A DNA stretch of 64,000 nt, taken from the NCBI GenBank assembly GCA_021296325.1, contig JAGWAR010000006.1:33572-97571 (forward strand), written 5' to 3'. Every line of letters starts with the position of its first letter. Positions within the stretch are counted from its first letter, which is position 1. Below are positions 9,806 to 18,944 of the stretch, one piece after another. The translations under genes were made by a program, and so were the position numbers. Source of the stretch: Alphaproteobacteria bacterium (lineage in GTDB: Bacteria; Pseudomonadota; Alphaproteobacteria; GCA-2746255). The notes under the pieces are model-generated. The model saw only the letters and a list, made by a program, of their open reading frames with translations, searched no databases and had not been told where the DNA came from.

Positions 9806-12461
9806 ATGACTCCGGCCGCCACCCGGACAACGTGCCCATACTGCGGGGTTGGCTGTGGCGTGACAGCCCGCGCCGGAGCAGATGGCGCCATTGCCATCGA
9901 AGGGGATCCCGATCATCCCGCCAATCGGGGACGGCTGTGCTCGAAAGGCTCCGCCCTCGGAGAAACCCTCGCGTCAACCAGCCGTCTACTGCGCCCGCGC
10001 GTCGGGGGAAAGGATACGGATTGGGATACGGCGCTTTCGCATGTTGCCCGAGGATTGTCCGAAACGTGCGAGCGGCACGGGCCGGATGCAGTGGCATTTT
10101 ACGTTTCAGGACAATTACTTACCGAAGATTACTACGTCGCAAACAAGCTTCTGAAAGGATTCGTCGGAACCGCCAACATCGACACGAATTCCCGCCTTTG
10201 CATGGCGTCTTCCGTCGCCGGCCACAAGCGCGCCTTCGGAAGCGACACCGTACCGGGTTGTTACGAAGACCTGGAGCAGGCGGATCTCGTCGTTCTCGTC
10301 GGCTCCAACTTCGCCTGGTGCCATCCGGTGCTGTTTCAGCGGCTACAGGCGGCGCGCGCAGACCGCAACACGCGCATCGTTGTTATCGATCCGCGTCGGA
10401 CAGTTACGGCGGAATCGGCGGATTTTCACCTGTCCCTCGCCTCCGGGTCCGACGTCGCGCTTTTCAACGGGCTGCTTGCCTATCTCGCAAGCAACGGGGC
10501 CGCCGATTCCGATTACCTCGATTCTTACACCTCGGGATGTGCGGACACCCTTGAAACCGCCCGCCCTTTCAACATCGAAGAAGTGGCGCGTATCACGCAC
10601 CTCCCCCCCGACCAGATCAACGCCTTCTACGAGGCCTTTCTCAAAACCGAACGGGTCGTGACGGTTTACTCGCAGGGCGTCAACCAGTCGAGCGCCGGCT
10701 CGCATAAGGTCAACGCGCCTCTATACGGGCCGTATCGGACGTGCCGGCATGGGGCCTTTCTCGATCACCGGCCAGCCAAATGCGATGGGCGGTCGTGAGG
10801 TGGGCGGGCTGGCCAATCAGCTGGCGGCCCATATGGAAATCACGAACCCATCGCACCACGATCTCGTACGCCGTTTCTGGGACGCGCCGACGATGCCCGA
10901 ACGTCCAGGCATGAAGGCGGTTGACCTGTTCCGTGCGGTGGGGCGCGGTGAAGTAAAGGCTGTCTGGATCATGGCGACAAACCCCGTCGCCAGCCTACCC
11001 ATGGCCGAGACAGTCGCCGAGGCTCTGCGCACCTGCCCACTGGTCATATTGTCGGACGTCACGGACACCACGCGCACGGCCGCCATGGCCGACGTGCTGC
11101 TGCCCGCCGCGGGATGGGGAGAAAAGGACGGCACGGTCACCAATTCCGAACGGCGCATCTCGCGCCAACGCCCCTTTCTGCCGCCGCCCGGCGAGGCCCG
11201 CCCCGACTGGCAGATTGTCGCCCAGGTTGCACAGAAGATGAAATTCCGGGGTTTCGATTACCCAAACGCCGCCGCCGTCTTCCGCGAGCATGCCGCGCTT
11301 TCCGCCTTCGAAAACAACGGCACCAGGGATTTCGACATCGGCGGCCTCGCATCCCTGACGGACGAAGCCTATGACACCATGGAACCCGTCCAATGGCCCG
11401 TCCCCAAGGGCCGTCGCCAGGGCACGGCGCGGCTGTTTGGAAAAGGCGGATATTTCACGGCGACCGGCCGCGGTCATTTCGTGCCCACCCTCTTCCGCCC
11501 ACCGGCATCCACGCCAAGCGCGGGCTACCCCCTAGTCATGAACACGGGCCGTATCCGCGATCAATGGCACACGATGACACGGACCGGCATGGTGCCGCGG
11601 CTGCTTGTGCACACGGCCGAACCTTTCGTGGAGATACACCCCGAGGACGCGGCAGCGGCCGGCGTTGCACCAGCCACGCTGGCTTGCGTGGAAAGCCCCC
11701 ATGGCTGCCTGATTGCGCGCGTCCTTCCAACCTCGCGCCAGTCCCGCGGCACCGTCTTCGTGCCGATGCACTGGACGGCACCCTATGCCGCCTGCGCACA
11801 ACCGGATTCCCTGGTTGCCAATCACGTTGACCCGGTTTCGGGCCAGCCGGAACTCAAGCATACGCCCGTGCGGGTAACGCCCTATGCGGCGGCCTGGTAC
11901 GGCTACCTTGTGACGCGACGCCAGCCTCGGCTGGATGGTTTCGGTTACTGGGCGCTGGCGCTGGCGAAGGATGGCTGGCGCGCGGAACTTGCGGACAGGA
12001 CGGCTCCGGATTCCTTCCCACGTCTCGCACGCGCCCTGCTTGGCCTGGATGCAGACGACCCGGCGGCCGACGACGCCCTGCTCACCTACCACGACACGGC
12101 GGGCGGCGAGCACCGCTTCGCGCATTTCCGGGAAAACCGGTTCGAAGGCGCCCTGATGACGGCACCCCTGCCGGTGGCGGCCGGGCGGACATGGTTGGCC
12201 GACCAGCTCGGCGAAACGCTGTCGCAAACGGCGCGGCACCACGTTCTGGCCGGGCGGGCGGGAGCGGATTGCCCGGACCCGGGAGCCATCGTGTGTGCCT
12301 GTTTCGAAATCGGCATCCATCAGATTACGGACGCCATCGCGGCCGGCGCGACCAGCGTCGATGCCGTCGGCACCGCCGTGAAAGCAGGCATGAATTGCGG
12401 TTCGTGCCGCGCCGAGATCAACCGCATCCTGGCACAGACTGCGATCAAGCAGGCCGTCTAG
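9806..12461 (+). pseudogene. nasA: Assimilatory nitrate reductase catalytic subunit, split by a frameshift at about 10718
   Basis: N-half has TCPYCGVGC and NSRLCM; C-half has GQPNAMGGREVGG, TGRIRDQWHTMTRT and a C-terminal BFD domain. The frame changes between KVNA and LYTGRIG. Confidence 0.85.
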
Positions 12462-12469
12462 GCAACCGT

Positions 12470-13060
12470 CTCGGGCTGCACGATGGAGATCGAGCGCAGA
12501 ACGCCTGGCTGCTCCGTTTCTGTCCGGGCAACCTTGCCCTTGCCGTCAGGCTCCTCCGGCAAACCGGCATGAGGGCCGAGGAAGGCTTTTCCCTCGAGCA
12601 CGGCCAGTGTGACCTCAAGCGCCACGAGCGCCTGTTGCCGCGGACCAAGACGAACCGGCCGCGGGTGATACCGCTCGCCGATCCCCTGCTCGCCGACGCC
12701 GGTATCACGCTGAGTATCACACCCCGCCACCTTACCTCCCCCTTCGTGTTCTGGCACGGTGACGGAACCCGCTACCGCAACGTCGCCTCCCGGTTTGCCG
12801 AGATCATGCGCCGGGCCGAGCGTCAGGCCCTCGTCGAAAAGCGCCAGTTTCAACGCTTTCGCTGCCACGACCTGCGGCACAAGTTTGCGGTCGAATATCT
12901 GAAAAGCGGCGGCGATATTTACGCGCTCGCCCGTATCCTGGGGCACTCATCGGTCAAGACGACGGAAATCTATCTCGCCTGCACGAGCGAAGGTGTATCC
13001 CAAAAAGTATCACAGCAGCGGCGGTTTTCTCGGGCCGGTGAAGGCGAGATATCCATCTAA
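12470..13060 (+). pseudogene. 5'-truncated tyrosine recombinase/integrase remnant
   Basis: TGMR, TKT, HDLRH, LGH and TEIY catalytic motifs; no plausible start or N-terminal domains; ends 10 bp from the tRNA 3' end. Confidence 0.8.
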
Positions 13061-13070
13061 CGCATTGAAT

Positions 13071-13163
13071 TGGCGGAGGGAGAGGGATTCGAACCCTCGA
13101 TAGGGCTTTACACCCTATAACGGTTTAGCAAACCGCCGCCTTCAGCCACTCGGCCACCCCTCC
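13071..13163 (-). tRNA. tRNA-Ser(GCT)
   Basis: GGAGGGGTGGCCGAGTGG...GGTTT GCT AAACC..., long variable arm, GGTTCGAATCC T-loop, encoded CCA. Confidence 0.95.
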
Positions 13164-15134: not shown

Positions 15135-15142
15135 GAGAACCG
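15135..15142 (+). repeat. 8-bp target site duplication (left copy)
   Basis: GAGAACCG, identical to 18937-18944. Confidence 0.9.
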
Positions 15143-15162
15143 GGTAGTGTCTCAGTTTGAAA
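15143..15162 (+). repeat. Terminal inverted repeat
   Basis: GGTAGTGTCTCAGTTTGAAA; contains the transposase stop codon. Confidence 0.92.
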
Positions 15163-16039
15163 TCTGGCGTTTCCTATAAGCCTTCGGCCTGCCCGGCTTC
15201 GGGGCGCGGGCGTCTATCAGACCCACGATCCATTCCATGTCATGCAGGGTATAGGAAATACCGGCTTCCATCGCCGGGGATATTCCGCCCAGCGCCTTGT
15301 GCTGACGGCAGAAATTATACCAGACAAAGTATAGCGCCAGCGCATGACAGTGGTTTTCGAATTTCTTGGAGAACGCATTGGTCAGCCTAGTAAATCGCCG
15401 CATGGACATCCGCATCGTCAGGTTCTGCCGCTCGACGTAGGATGTAGAGACGTGCTTGGGATCGGGCTTTCCCCGAAGACGGTCCTTTTTAACGCCATTG
15501 CAAACAGGCGGGCTATATCGCTTTTCGCTTTCTGGGGCTGTGCCGTACATCTTTACAAGCTGGGCATAATCAATACCCCTATCAGCAAACGCCCCGATCA
15601 CAGCATCCAGATAGGCATAATGCCCGTCGGTGGTTAGCTGGACGCGATTTGTTAGGCGACCCGCTACATCATCCATGAAGGCGTTTGCTAACTCGGAGTC
15701 CCGGCCACCGACCAGCCAAGAGACAATCAGCTTGCTATCGGCATCCAAAGCCGTCCACGTCCATACATCGCCCGCACCCTCTGGCGCGGCCTTCGCCGTG
15801 GGTACGTTCTTCGCCTTGGCGTAGGCAAAGCTCCAGATTTCATCGCACTGGACGCGCTTGGATTTAAGCCCGCGCACATGTTCGTCATGATAGGCCGCGC
15901 AAGCGTTCCCGGCATCCACCAACAATTTGGATACTGTATTGATGGAAACGCCCACCACGCGGCTGATGGACCGCATGGAAGACCCCTCGCAGAGCATGGA
16001 AAGGATTTGGATGCGCTTCTCTAGGGGCAATTTGTTCAT
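15152..16039 (-). CDS. IS1-family DDE transposase (single ORF)
   Basis: N-terminal HTH (SMRSISRVVGVSINTV); D in QCDEIW, D in TTDG, E in YVERQN; RRFTRLTNAFSKK. Confidence 0.9.
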   Translation of the reverse strand: MNKLPLEKRIQILSMLCEGSSMRSISRVVGVSINTVSKLLVDAGNACAAYHDEHVRGLKSKRVQCDEIWSFAYAKAKNVPTAKAAPEGAGDVWTWTALDADSKLIVSWLVGGRDSELANAFMDDVAGRLTNRVQLTTDGHYAYLDAVIGAFADRGIDYAQLVKMYGTAPESEKRYSPPVCNGVKKDRLRGKPDPKHVSTSYVERQNLTMRMSMRRFTRLTNAFSKKFENHCHALALYFVWYNFCRQHKALGGISPAMEAGISYTLHDMEWIVGLIDARAPKPGRPKAYRKRQISN

Positions 16040-16045
16040 GCCCCT

Positions 16046-16074
16046 ATTATCTGAACTTATATACTTAGCGTCAA
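16046..16074 (-). promoter_or_regulatory. sigma70 promoter of the transposase
   Basis: TTGACG-17 bp-GATAAT, 6 nt upstream of the ATG. Confidence 0.7.
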
Positions 16075-16084
16075 GTATTTTTGT

Positions 16085-17257
16085 TCACTTAAGGGTTGGT
16101 TCAATAATCGGGGGCTCTCCCATCGTAAGCGAACCCTTTTTAAGGTTGCACATGGCCTCAATGAAGCGTGGATTGATCTGGACAGCAGCTTTTAATCCGT
16201 CAGCAGTCATTTTGCCGCTCTCCGCTGCCAAATCGAATGCCCGAGTCAAAAGGCGTGGGCTCTCTAGGGGGATGAGTGACGGGTCATCTAGCGGCTCTTG
16301 TGTGCGCCACTTCCTGAAAGAAACCTGCTTACGCATATTCAAAATTTGGTTCTCATCGAAAATCCCAAGATCAGAACAACGGTAAATCATAGCTTGAATT
16401 GAAACACGCCATCGGCGTTTCAATTCCACAAATGCATCTAACCGTGGTGTAAATACTTCGTTGGGAAACGAGTGTTTTGGAAGTAGGAAAGCCCCAGCAA
16501 AACGATCCGCTTGTCTCTCTATTTCCTTTAAAAATGTCCTATCCTCAATTTCAGATGAATCAATATGTCGGTGCATCACCAAATGCCCAAGCTCGTGAGC
16601 AAGATCGAATCTAGTCCGCACCCCGGCCTTTTTCTCGGATGCCATAAAAATGAACGGACGTGGGCCATTCCAGAATGAAAACGCCTCTACATTTTCGCCA
16701 GCCATTTCATAGCGACAAGCAATGACACCATTCGATTCCAGCAGGGCCAATACATTAGAAATTGGCCCCAAACCAAGCCCCCAGTCTGAGCGAACCCGCT
16801 CTGCTATTTCGTCAATCCCATCTTCGCCAAAGTCAGCGTGGTCATATTGAGGAACCTTAACTGCCGGATAATTCACAAAGCGATCAAACGCCTTCGCCAC
16901 TTGCACAAACCAGCCAGCATAAGTGTCGCACGCCTCGCGCCGACGAGCGGTATCGGAGCCAAATTTGCGATAAAACCGTGTGGTCGATTGCCCGAATACA
17001 GGCTCATCTTCCGACGTAAAGAACCCCGGCGGCTGCTCAAGTGCAGAGACGAGCGCCGTAAAGGTTTCTGGATCGGGAAGTCTGTCCCCGCGCTCGAATT
17101 GCGAAATTGCTTGGCGCGTAACACCAATTCGGTCGCCCAATTCTTCCTGCGATAGGCGCAAAAACTTACGCGCATCCCTAACGCGCGCTGGAATCAAAAG
17201 CCGCCCACCACGATCAGGGCGGGCGGCTGGGAAATGGACGATGTTATTCGTTGTCAC
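16085..17257 (-). CDS. XRE HTH plus ImmA/IrrE zinc metallopeptidase (RmrA-like antitoxin candidate)
   Basis: LSQEELGDRIGVTRQAISQFERG HTH; RFDLAHELGH (HExxH); ERQADRFAGAFLLP. Confidence 0.88.
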   Translation of the reverse strand: MTTNNIVHFPAARPDRGGRLLIPARVRDARKFLRLSQEELGDRIGVTRQAISQFERGDRLPDPETFTALVSALEQPPGFFTSEDEPVFGQSTTRFYRKFGSDTARRREACDTYAGWFVQVAKAFDRFVNYPAVKVPQYDHADFGEDGIDEIAERVRSDWGLGLGPISNVLALLESNGVIACRYEMAGENVEAFSFWNGPRPFIFMASEKKAGVRTRFDLAHELGHLVMHRHIDSSEIEDRTFLKEIERQADRFAGAFLLPKHSFPNEVFTPRLDAFVELKRRWRVSIQAMIYRCSDLGIFDENQILNMRKQVSFRKWRTQEPLDDPSLIPLESPRLLTRAFDLAAESGKMTADGLKAAVQINPRFIEAMCNLKKGSLTMGEPPIIEPTLK

Positions 17258-17918
17258 GCCTTAGCCTGTCGATTTCTTCTTTAAGAGTCATCACCGCTTC
17301 AACGTCCGTTTCCTCCATCGGAACTTCCGACTGGGGAACCGAATGAGCCATCAACATCAAATTGGGCGACCTATGCTGAAACCCTTCAGAGTGGCGAGGG
17401 TGTGGAATCGCAAGGTGTGCGAAATCAAGCGTCTGATGGCCATGCAGCAGCAGAATGTGCGGCGCCCCATTCCATTCCCCTAAATCTTCCCGCATGAACT
17501 CCATGGAGATCTGGCTAGTTAGCCTTTTATTCCGGCGAAATTTTACGTCACGCGGCTGCTTGTCCGGATGGGCGACTTGGCTGATGGTTAACACAGAGTG
17601 GCTGAACAAAACTTCCAAGTAGCGGCCCGTCGGGCGTTCGAATAAACGCCAGCACCGATCAACACCGAACTGGCCCGAATCGACCAGCTTCTCGAACGCC
17701 AAATCGACCGCCCACTGAATGATCCGCCCTCGATTGGCCTTTGCGCTCTCTACGGAAAGAATGGGCTCTTTGTCTATGACAAGGCTTGCTGCCGCATAGG
17801 CTTGCTTCAGGGTAGTTGGAACAACCGCCCGACGAACAAGCGGAATCTGGTCGAGAAGAAACGCTTCAGAGAGTTCCAAGGAGGAGGCCCTTTCCGGGTT
17901 GCCGAAGTCAGTAGGCAA
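17244..17918 (-). CDS. Hypothetical protein (candidate toxin partner of XRE-ImmA)
   Basis: 224-aa ORF overlapping the ImmA start by 14 bp; the real start may be the TTG at 17879. Confidence 0.7.
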   Translation of the reverse strand: MPTDFGNPERASSLELSEAFLLDQIPLVRRAVVPTTLKQAYAAASLVIDKEPILSVESAKANRGRIIQWAVDLAFEKLVDSGQFGVDRCWRLFERPTGRYLEVLFSHSVLTISQVAHPDKQPRDVKFRRNKRLTSQISMEFMREDLGEWNGAPHILLLHGHQTLDFAHLAIPHPRHSEGFQHRSPNLMLMAHSVPQSEVPMEETDVEAVMTLKEEIDRLRRDNE

Positions 17919-17919
17919 C

Positions 17920-17948
17920 TATTTACGAAATTACCAGGTTTTTGTCAA
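17920..17948 (-). promoter_or_regulatory. sigma70 promoter of the two-gene cargo operon
   Basis: TTGACA-17 bp-TAAATA. Confidence 0.5.
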
Positions 17949-18184
17949 CTGCAAGATTTCCCCCATCGCTTGGCAGCCGCCTTCTTAGCGATCTCCGCCC
18001 GCTTCTTCTTGCTCAGGCTCTTGGCCCGCGCTTGGCCGCCCTTTTTCCCTAGGGCAACGGCGGCCTTGTTTTTGCCGTTCTCATCTACGCTATCTTCAAT
18101 CTCGCCCGTAGCGATCTTGGCAACCTTGACGGCGGCTCCAATCACATCGGCAGGGCGTTTCTCGCCTTTGGGGCCCTTAGGCAT
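17945..18184 (-). CDS. Small basic IS1-associated protein
   Basis: MPKGPKGEKRPADVIG...AVALGKKGGQARAKSLSKKKRAEIAKKAAAKRW; Lys/Ala-rich. Confidence 0.8.
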   Translation of the reverse strand: MPKGPKGEKRPADVIGAAVKVAKIATGEIEDSVDENGKNKAAVALGKKGGQARAKSLSKKKRAEIAKKAAAKRWGKSCS

Positions 18185-18390
18185 CAGGCGTCCACCTCAG
18201 AAATGATGGTGTAGCCTGCGGAAAGCGTGCCCGTGCCGGTCGCAGAAGGGCGGGACGGCTGCCAAGTGAAGCCCACAATGCGAACGTGGCCCTTACGCGT
18301 TGCGATGTTCTGCAAAACCTCGTTTAGATTGGAAATATCATCCCGTGCGGTATCTGCTTGGTACTTTTTAGCTTCAGCTCTTTCAGCCAT
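18184..18390 (-). CDS. Hypothetical 68-aa protein
   Basis: GAGG RBS; TGATG coupling to the 79-aa gene. Confidence 0.65.
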   Translation of the reverse strand: MAERAEAKKYQADTARDDISNLNEVLQNIATRKGHVRIVGFTWQPSRPSATGTGTLSAGYTIISEVDA

Positions 18391-18417
18391 AGTCGCTTCC
18401 TCATGTGCTTTCCGCTA

Positions 18418-18446
18418 AGCATATAGGGATTTAAGGCGTGCTGCAA
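18418..18446 (-). promoter_or_regulatory. sigma70 promoter of the 68-aa/79-aa operon
   Basis: TTGCAG-17 bp-TATGCT. Confidence 0.55.
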
Positions 18447-18497
18447 ACAGCAGCCTTTGGTATCTTTCTCACGTTCACAATTGATGGGGGATTAGCT

Positions 18498-18665
18498 ATG
18501 GCTAGAGTATCTCCTTTCCATAGTAAGAAGAATCCTGGCGTCTACCACGTTTGCTCAAATTGTACTGAGGGCAATAATATCGAACGTGAAAATAGAGCCT
18601 CCGGGACTGGGGGTGGGTCGCTTTGCCAGCGATGCAGCGAGCTACAGCGTTCGGGTAATTGTTAA
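18498..18665 (+). CDS. 55-aa Cys/His-rich mini-protein
   Basis: MARVSPFHSKKNPGVYHVCSNCTEGNNIE...LCQRC...C; GGGGGA RBS. Confidence 0.65.
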   Translation: MARVSPFHSKKNPGVYHVCSNCTEGNNIERENRASGTGGGSLCQRCSELQRSGNC

Positions 18666-18902
18666 CTCATTAATATGGTTTACGCGGGGGGCGGCCTCCA
18701 AGCGCTTGCAGTGATCCCAAATCAATTCGCCAAGAGTTGGGAGGCTGACCCCCCACTTTCGAGAAAGCCACTCAAATGTCATTCCGTTAGAGTGGATTTC
18801 CCAACACAGGATTTCGCCAAAGCTTTTTCCACATCCAGTCGGGCATGCCTCATATTGCTCGACAATTAATCGCCGTAGCCTTGTTAGGTGGGATTCCTCC
18901 AT
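18642..18902 (-). CDS. Hypothetical Cys-containing protein with an HTH-like segment
   Basis: MEESHL...CPTGC...TFEWLSRKWGVSLPTLGELIWDHC. Confidence 0.5.
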   Translation of the reverse strand: MEESHLTRLRRLIVEQYEACPTGCGKSFGEILCWEIHSNGMTFEWLSRKWGVSLPTLGELIWDHCKRLEAAPRVNHINELTITRTL

Positions 18903-18916
18903 GTCAACCGCCCGAT

Positions 18917-18936
18917 TTTCAAACTGAGACACTACC
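18917..18936 (-). repeat. Terminal inverted repeat
   Basis: TTTCAAACTGAGACACTACC, the exact reverse complement of 15143-15162. Confidence 0.92.
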
Positions 18937-18944
18937 GAGAACCG
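18937..18944 (+). repeat. 8-bp target site duplication (right copy)
   Basis: GAGAACCG. Confidence 0.9.

Follow-up and report, generated by a model that had tools for sequence, protein, structure and literature searches.

What is a toxin-antitoxin (TA) pair doing inside a small insertion sequence (IS)? The question is raised by a stretch of 64,000 nucleotides, here called the window, from an Alphaproteobacteria bacterium (GenBank assembly GCA_021296325.1, contig JAGWAR010000006.1, positions 33,572 to 97,571 of the forward strand), in which two adjacent genes, rmrT and rmrA, lie between the inverted repeats of an IS1-type element. A first-pass annotation had read them as a RosmerTA-like pair with an unrecognised and possibly new toxin, mobilised by the IS as defence or addiction cargo, and had named PADLOC, Foldseek and the linkage of the two genes in other genomes as ways of checking this. 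We consider it probable that the RosmerTA module is an integral cargo of a 3,794-bp IS1-family transporter IS that entered, as a single unit, the interval between an OmpA-like gene and gatB.

Gene content and family assignment

The pair consists of two genes, both on the minus strand:

17244..17879, minus strand: rmrT, predicted toxin of 211 aa, TTG start at 17879, PADLOC RmrT model PDLC03938
16085..17257, minus strand: rmrA, predicted antitoxin and repressor of 390 aa, GTG start, with an XRE-type helix-turn-helix (HTH), an M78 (ImmA/IrrE) Zn-peptidase and a C-terminal domain, PADLOC RmrA model PDLC03952

The genes are adjacent and co-directional and overlap by 14 bp (17244-17257), so the two-gene unit with an XRE-HTH and HExxH M78 partner that had been described is indeed there, and its upstream protein has 211 aa. 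The longest open reading frame (ORF) for rmrT would give 224 aa from a TTG at 17918 (17244..17918). This start was rejected in favour of the TTG at 17879 because it falls within the promoter and operator and because close RmrT homologues are 211-213 aa long; the 211-aa form is identical to a database protein (P0001). Pfam recognises two domains in RmrA, HTH_3 (residues 27-78, E 7.2e-12) and Peptidase_M78/IrrE (residues 181-295, E 1.8e-21). Since the HExxH residues H221, E222 and H225 are invariant in all 21 aligned relatives, the window copy included, the peptidase is probably active throughout this subtype.

The family was assigned with the models of PADLOC-DB v2, which we applied as single hidden Markov models (HMMs) and not as a system caller. 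RmrT matches PDLC03938 at E 2.2e-88 over model positions 5-213 of 215, and more weakly two other RmrT models (PDLC03933, E 3e-15; PDLC03940, E 1.3e-10), and RmrA matches PDLC03952 at E 2e-180 over positions 2-395 of 395, together with 13 further RmrA models. A profile search of 1.84 billion representative proteins gave 269 toxin relatives at E<=0.001, nearly all of them stand-alone proteins of ~210-230 aa, and among 80 diverse relatives the same three RmrT models were matched by 80 (PDLC03938), 80 (PDLC03933) and 79 (PDLC03940). By these matches the window pair is a RosmerTA member, with an HTH and Zn-peptidase antitoxin as the annotation had supposed, and its toxin is within the main catalogued RmrT superfamily. 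The suggestion of a new toxin family had to be abandoned on the full-length match and on the 80 of 80 relatives that match RmrT models, so that the PADLOC comparison upheld the system and removed the novelty of the toxin. There was some truth in calling the toxin unrecognised, as scans of Pfam, NCBIfam and PHROGs matched no family to RmrT, but it was already catalogued as RmrT in PADLOC; it looked unfamiliar because those three libraries have no model for it. A Pfam scan of the 80 relatives gave just three single-member matches at chance level and no nuclease family, and sequence searches of the PDB with two RmrT profiles returned no match at E<=10. When RmrT was compared by tblastn with a phage collection, the sole record matched was a Zymomonas plasmid sequence.

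In the published description of RosmerTA, a Zn-peptidase antitoxin is paired with a toxin whose function was not known; the system defends E. coli against phages, and an rmrA deletion could not be transformed or obtained (10.1101/2022.05.11.491447). Another study presents RmrA as a hub antitoxin of the ImmA type whose partners are diverse RmrTs with a common fold, and reports a phage-borne RosmerTA validated as toxic, neutralised and defensive (PMC10440598).

A scan with the RmrT profile over one genome per species yielded 24 loci, mostly from Alphaproteobacteria, with three from Acidobacteriota-type metagenome-assembled genomes (MAGs). RmrA lies directly downstream of RmrT in every one of the 24, and the pair is intact in 21. 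The imperfect cases are L016, with one in-frame stop, L020, which is cut by the contig end, and L024, where remnants of both genes are left; L022 and L023 are duplicate copies inside one MAG. In 16 of the 24 loci the pair stands without any transposase. In pairwise comparison of nine elements, RmrT identity closely tracks RmrA identity (Mantel r 0.95, p 0.0002), as is expected for interacting partners.

The mobile element

The pair is carried within an element of 3,794 bp (15143-18936) whose features are as follows:

15135..15142: target-site duplication GAGAACCG, left copy, identical to 18937-18944
15143..15162: terminal inverted repeat at the transposase end (GGTAGTGTCTCAGTTTGAAA), 100% complementary to 18917-18936
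15152..16039, minus strand: probable IS1-family DDE transposase gene (tnp), 295 aa, single ORF, N-terminal HTH
16046..16078, minus strand: promoter-like site of the transposase, TTGACG-17-GATAAT, with 10 of 12 consensus matches, overlapping the palindrome ATACTT-N6-AAGTAT (16061-16078)
17945..18184, minus strand: orf79, Lys/Ala-rich 79-aa protein and element backbone gene, its stop codon inside the -35 of the rmrTA promoter
18184..18390, minus strand: orf68, small ORF overlapping the start of orf79 (ATGA)
18405..18422: second palindrome copy (ATGCTTAGCGGAAAGCAC on the minus strand), before the ribosome-binding site of orf68
18436..18916: extra segment of ~480 bp, flanked by the first palindrome and the TTGACA-bearing outer repeat, holding orf96 and a 75-aa ORF
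18642-18932, minus strand: orf96, HTH-like by eye
18438-18665, plus strand: Cys-rich 75-aa ORF with two CxxC pairs
18917..18936: terminal inverted repeat at the orf79 end, pairing with 15143-15162
18937..18944: target-site duplication GAGAACCG, right copy, direct repeat

Read on the minus strand, the order is thus outer repeat, the ~480-bp unique segment, orf68, orf79, rmrT, rmrA and the transposase, the stop codon of which falls in the other repeat. The inverted repeats are perfect over 20 nt, and the repeat has two matches in the window against none in 100 shuffles. They are flanked by a perfect 8-bp target duplication, and the GC content of the element is 52% compared with ~59-70% in the flanks, which hold the OmpA-like gene and gatB. 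That the pair is on the IS, as had been claimed, is borne out by the perfect repeats, by the target duplication and by the same arrangement in 8 of the 24 loci and on one plasmid.

The transposase matches Pfam DDE_Tnp_IS1 at 25.7 bits, just above the cut-off of 24.1, and NCBIfam transpos_IS1 at 63.4 bits, under the cut-off of 100; its homologues with 59-69% identity are named IS1 family transposase in RefSeq and JGI. The clade holds at least 8,000 clusters at E<=1e-30, and all the listed ones that bear a name are IS1 family transposases; because the clade is so large, the carriers of RosmerTA are a subset of it. ISfinder lists an IS1 subgroup with long members.

Of the smaller genes, orf79 has no match in Pfam, NCBIfam or PADLOC, and orf68 has a weak homologue at the same position in one sister element (L027, 33% identity, E 3e-5). 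The ORFs of the ~480-bp segment have no homologue in any other compared locus and are specific to the window copy; orf96 gave no match in Pfam, PADLOC, NCBIfam or PHROGs, and the Cys-rich ORF has no PHROGs family, PHROGs being the only one of these libraries scanned for it.

Elsewhere in the window there is a truncated tyrosine integrase (12191-13163; Phage_integrase, E 1.4e-22), of which only the catalytic part is left (ORF residues 115-263). It abuts tRNA-Ser(GCT) (13071-13163) on the opposite strand, and together they look like the remnant of a tRNA-integrated island.

Related elements and their cargo

The order orf79-rmrT-rmrA-tnp recurs between the same repeats in 8 of the 24 genome loci, all eight bracketed by the repeats and all at unrelated insertion sites. 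In these eight the same transposase (58-72% identity) follows rmrA by 45-60 bp, and it is frameshifted in L015 and L016. A Hoeflea plasmid has the same arrangement between the same repeats, again at an insertion site unrelated to the others. Three further loci (L004, L010, L012) have no transposase and have kept a lone degenerate outer repeat.

A search that is unbiased for cargo was made with the transposase, by tblastn against 72,556 plasmid records, and gave five records, four of them with complete elements. All four carry cargo, and one of the four, that of Hoeflea, carries RosmerTA. The elements of Mesorhizobium loti and Methylocapsa hold, on the opposite strand, an HTH and M78 protein that matches PD-Lambda-2_B of PADLOC (E 2e-49 and 4e-40, respectively), accompanied by a protein of 151-159 aa without assigned family whose two copies are 32% identical. 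These sister elements (L027, CP050295.1, 2796-6165; L028, NZ_CP136863.1, 2776-5900) may thus carry another pair of peptidase antitoxin and toxin. The cargo of the Acidiphilium element is a 68-aa ORF with an SDH-type ClpP-like serine protease (PF01972, E 3e-21); here (L026, NZ_CP041717.1, 2848-5481) the repeats, orf79 and transposase are the same, and the two cargo genes are on the opposite strand. As to the surroundings of these copies, the L026 insertion is directly beside an Xre/RES toxin-antitoxin pair, and the Methylocapsa element adjoins a Shedu nuclease and an AAA-ATPase/UvrD pair.

Thirteen delimited elements of 2,634-4,300 bp could be compared. Eight have perfect 8-bp target duplications, three have duplications off by one base, and two have none (L016, L028). 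The cargo is RosmerTA in ten, a PD-Lambda-2_B-like HTH-peptidase pair in two and the SDH-type serine protease pair in one; the RosmerTA share is biased, because nine of those elements were found through the RmrT search. Some of the RosmerTA-bearing ones hold a second cargo within their repeats: a PemK/MazF toxin with no obvious antitoxin called (L011, 8768-9154, E 1.2e-21), a dCTP-deaminase-like protein (L014, 4690-5277, E 1.7e-31), a weak TIR-effector match (L015, 6987-7829, E 1.6e-8) and a weak PD-T4-9_A match with a 78-aa upstream ORF (L025, 2078-2913, E 7.7e-6).

Two RosmerTA copies are decayed. In L016 (5977-8684) the outer repeat cuts rmrT short, a stop interrupts rmrA, the transposase is frameshifted and there is no target duplication, and in L024 (6001-6552) only fragments of rmrT and rmrA follow orf79. 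The module is therefore not irreversibly fixed in the element. The identities of cargo and transposase agree weakly (Mantel r 0.42 and 0.30), and strict co-divergence of the two is rejected when this range of 0.30-0.42 is set against the 0.95 of RmrT and RmrA. It is probable that the cargo slot was refilled or underwent recombination, and that its content was not strictly inherited along with the transposase.

A homologue of orf79 is found in 12 of the 13 elements, independent of the cargo, and is annotated as histone H1 in L027. It is because of this presence whatever the cargo that orf79 is placed among the backbone genes, and it was on the same ground rejected as a part of the TA module. 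It may be a DNA-binding accessory protein or regulator of the element. A palindrome, ATGCTT-N6-AAGCAT with at most two mismatches, occurs twice per element in nine of the ten RosmerTA-bearing elements, once over the -35 of the promoter-like site ~40 nt before tnp and once near the outer repeat, before the first ORF. This double occurrence suggests a regulatory circuit at the level of the element, separate from the RmrA operator, and orf79 is possibly the protein that binds the palindrome.

Regulatory sequences and protein interaction

Upstream of rmrT two regulatory features were found:

17920..17948, minus strand: rmrTA promoter, -35 TTGACA at 17948->17943, 17-nt spacer, -10 TAAATA at 17925->17920
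17898..17919: palindrome GTTGCC-N10-GGCAAC directly after the -10, candidate RmrA operator

The promoter was not listed by a consensus promoter scanner, since its -10 is weak and matches at three of six positions. A TTGACA is nevertheless kept at the equivalent place upstream of RmrT in 23 of the 24 loci, the exception being the truncated L016. This conservation exceeds chance, and we take the promoter to be real, so the TTGACA promoter of its own (17943-17948) that the pair had been credited with has stood up.

A block of the form GGTTGACAAA - ~12 nt - TTTTCGnATnnGGTTGC - N - GCAACC is conserved upstream of RmrT, and the exact palindrome GTTGC-N12-GCAAC is found at the same place in 15 of the 24 loci. 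In the Acidobacteriota-type loci L021-L023 the arms are changed symmetrically to CTTGC..GCAAG, which fits a co-evolution of operator and repressor. The position and arm sequence of the palindrome are conserved while the spacer varies, which is what gives it weight and is more in keeping with the operator of a protein than with an RNA hairpin. We infer that the HTH of RmrA binds the palindrome and autorepresses the operon.

For the proteins themselves, the RmrT-RmrA complex was predicted from our own alignments (A2 with 21 rows for RmrA, A1 with 44 rows for RmrT). The median score was 0.71 (runs 0.00, 0.76 and 0.71) against 0.15 for the best control. The score mark is reached by 116 of 157 solved complexes and by 2 of 215 mismatched pairs, counts that are only a rough guide here because the alignments are our own and not of the calibrated kind. 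Contacts agreed between runs by at least 0%, and the partner had a pLDDT of at least 71. The predicted interface sets RmrT residues 184-200 against RmrA residues 126-131, 161-177, 263, 266-267, 282 and 335-347. The monomer model shows little order in the RmrT segment, which holds the invariant E189, T191 and D192, and in RmrA 161-177 the residues L161, G164, P165, S167, N168, L172, E174 and G177 are invariant. The prediction supports a direct binding of RmrT by RmrA.

Discussion

From these features a working of the module can be proposed. The pair would be transcribed from its own TTGACA promoter, which is present and conserved, and dimers of RmrA would repress their own operon by binding to the GGTTGC-N-GCAACC palindrome that covers the transcription start, as the position and conservation of the palindrome suggest. 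RmrA would also keep RmrT inactive by direct binding, with a predicted grip on the conserved C-terminal residues 184-200. A phage-borne or stress signal would then remove or inactivate RmrA, perhaps by means of RmrA's own peptidase in the manner of ImmA/ImmR-type switches, and the freed RmrT, to judge from the family, would arrest the cell, so that the infection is aborted or cells that lose the element are killed. Because the pair lies inside the inverted repeats it moves with every transposition, by which the host may gain a defence and the element would gain a module that resists its own deletion.

The wider proposal, which we hold with slightly less than even confidence, is that a widespread alphaproteobacterial IS1-family lineage works as a miniature defence shuttle. 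Its backbone would be fixed (GGTAGTGTCTCAGTTTGAAA repeats, the H1-like protein, the transposase, and two promoters that share one palindrome), and its slot would take alternative peptidase-centred TA or defence modules.

Several observations weigh against the working proposed for the window pair. The toxicity, neutralisation and defence on record are those of other RosmerTA members. The operator palindrome taken alone is not significant in the window (one match, with at least one match in 41 of 100 shuffles), and it is exact in just the 15 of 24 loci mentioned. One of the three complex runs scored 0.00, with alignments outside the calibrated kind, and the HExxH residues are not among the named interface contacts, so that the role of the peptidase is not illuminated and the complex is silent on RmrT as a peptidase substrate. 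The toxin has no fold match in the PDB at E<=0.001, for models with pLDDT 79.9 and 88.7. The genomic context, finally, is a mixed one: only ~5 of 13 transposase-less loci have, within 6 kb, a further match to PADLOC models (E<=1e-8), and some of these matches are generic. These neighbours are a full-length retron-type reverse transcriptase (RT)-protease (L002), a fragment of a type IIG restriction-modification system (L009), mad3/AriA-like ATPases (L013, L017) and DrmD (L022), and we regard such a defence-island context as suggestive but not strong.

Could the pair instead be mainly an addiction or stabilisation module, in which RmrT kills cells that have lost the IS or its replicon, and with it the labile antitoxin? 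We think this possible, if rather doubtful. It would explain a pair that lies inside the transposable unit in 10 of the 13 delimited elements, several copies of which are on plasmids, and a sister element (L011) does carry a classical TA toxin of the PemK/MazF type. The TA pair has moreover outlived the transposase in L004, L010 and L012, as the lone outer repeat left there without its transposase tells. RosmerTA members elsewhere, however, are reported to defend against phages (10.1101/2022.05.11.491447, PMC10440598), and other cargo of the sister elements points to defence (the PD-Lambda-2_B-like and dCTP-deaminase-like proteins and the weak TIR-effector match); the decayed copies in L016 and L024 show, too, that the module can be lost. 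The two roles do not exclude each other, and defence and addiction of the element are compatible.

AlphaFold gave two models of RmrT (from A1, pLDDT 79.9 and pTM 0.72; from A3 with 80 sequences, pLDDT 88.7 and pTM 0.85) of the same layout: an N-terminal helical bundle (2-67), strands at 74-79, 86-91 and 96-102, a helix at 113-121, a disordered loop, three strands within 141-170, and a C-terminal helix (191-209). The Foldseek comparison that had been proposed for the upstream protein was run with both models, two times against the PDB and also against BFVD, but returned no match at E<=0.001. A search of the ESM Atlas with RmrT gave unnamed clusters only, with DUF5986 on 12% of one cluster at rank 24. 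Nearly invariant among the 80 relatives are Y28, P109, R110, R115, H146, G147, F153 and P159.

One explanation of the presumed toxicity would be that RmrT is a divergent nuclease of the restriction-endonuclease-like PD-(D/E)XK fold, which degrades nucleic acid once it is released. Among the weak Foldseek hits, obtained with two models in two libraries, proteins of this fold predominate, at probabilities of 0.1-0.47 (Cas4/ACE1, SSO0001, R.SwaI, SPARDA, AddB/AdnAB, CinB, Hjc, RecU and phage PD-(D/E)XK proteins), and the model does run from a helix through three strands and a helix to more strands. We nonetheless find it unlikely, as the query-normalised TM-scores do not exceed 0.34 in lists where nothing reaches E<=0.001, as none of the 80 relatives matches a Pfam nuclease family, and as the near-invariant residues are not an acidic D...(D/E)xK set, a motif that is not seen on the strands of the model either. 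A canonical PD-(D/E)XK active site was rejected on the conservation pattern of the 80 relatives.

It is very improbable that RmrA is mainly a stress switch of the element, an ImmR/ImmA-like fused repressor-protease whose derepression of rmrTA would read into tnp and let phage infection or DNA damage trigger transposition with RmrT as an accessory: tnp is directly downstream of rmrA on the same strand in all ten RosmerTA-bearing elements (45-60 bp), no convincing terminator is listed between the two in 16040-16084, and peptidases of the ImmA type are reported to cleave HTH repressors and so induce mobile elements (PMC10440598), but tnp has a conserved promoter-like site of its own, and the palindrome there, the same as at the outer-end promoter and different from the operator of rmrTA, hints at a separate regulatory circuit, the cargo strand is opposite to tnp in the 3 of 13 elements with other cargo, 16 of the 24 RmrT-RmrA loci are without any transposase, and the phylogenies of cargo and transposase agree weakly (Mantel r 0.30-0.42).

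The reading of the pair as RosmerTA cargo of a transporter IS can be compared with systems that have already been described. The window pair is like the RosmerTA of 10.1101/2022.05.11.491447 and PADLOC-DB v2 in its two genes, its HTH and M78 antitoxin and the full-length match to an RmrT HMM, and the order with the toxin first is given for 58% of cases in this TA group (PMC10440598). It differs in being a fixed cargo of an IS1-family element. The RmrTA of Gordonia phage Kita, which was validated for toxicity, neutralisation and defence, likewise has an ImmA-like protease as antitoxin (node D25), with a toxin (D5) described as membrane-depolarising, with a C-terminus predicted to be membrane-localised, and in a complex that, in the sections available, could not be predicted (PMC10440598). 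RmrT of the window is in contrast modelled as a compact domain of helices and sheet, and its predicted complex with RmrA passes the score mark. ImmR/ImmA of ICEBs1 and switches of the IrrE type resemble the pair in combining an M78 peptidase with an XRE-HTH on a mobile element (PMC10440598), and ImmR/ImmA offers a precedent for protease-controlled derepression. In RmrA, HTH and peptidase are fused in one chain, and there is a toxin partner.

As for the vehicle, the concept of the transporter insertion sequence (tIS) has been set out in the available sections of PMC7986276 and PMC9330008. With the tIS and the IS1 family the element shares a single DDE transposase, short inverted repeats, an 8-bp duplication and passenger genes inside. 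It is unlike them in having defence or TA cargo in a conserved slot between the H1-like backbone gene and tnp, with alternative cargoes in sister elements, and its transposase, at 63.4 bits, is below the NCBIfam cut-off of 100 for transpos_IS1. Tn7-like transposons are also described as vehicles of defence systems, but they are large, multi-gene and site-targeting (PMC8649781), whereas the elements of the window type are 2.6-4.3 kb long and have a single transposase. A literature search, which did not cover ISfinder, found no description of an IS1-family transporter IS with RosmerTA or with a slot for defence cargo, and a search for "ISMhu11" found no occurrence. The TA pair is, by its family assignment, a further member of the catalogued RosmerTA system; that its vehicle, an IS1-type element with RosmerTA cargo, is new to description is plausible but unproven.

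Conclusions

The predicted grip of RmrA on the C-terminal segment of RmrT, together with a conserved candidate operator over the promoter, gives a poorly understood system a model that can be tested. For the RmrT superfamily, a fold is predicted with confidence and no relative has been solved, which poses a biochemical question on its activity. The recurrence of an IS1-type element with a swappable slot suggests that, in Alphaproteobacteria of soil and water, very small transposons ferry TA and defence modules between chromosomes and plasmids. If the element is indeed a defence shuttle of a kind not described before, an IS with a single transposase, and not just large transposons, phages and islands, would spread anti-phage systems, and the cargo may at the same time double as an addiction module of the IS.

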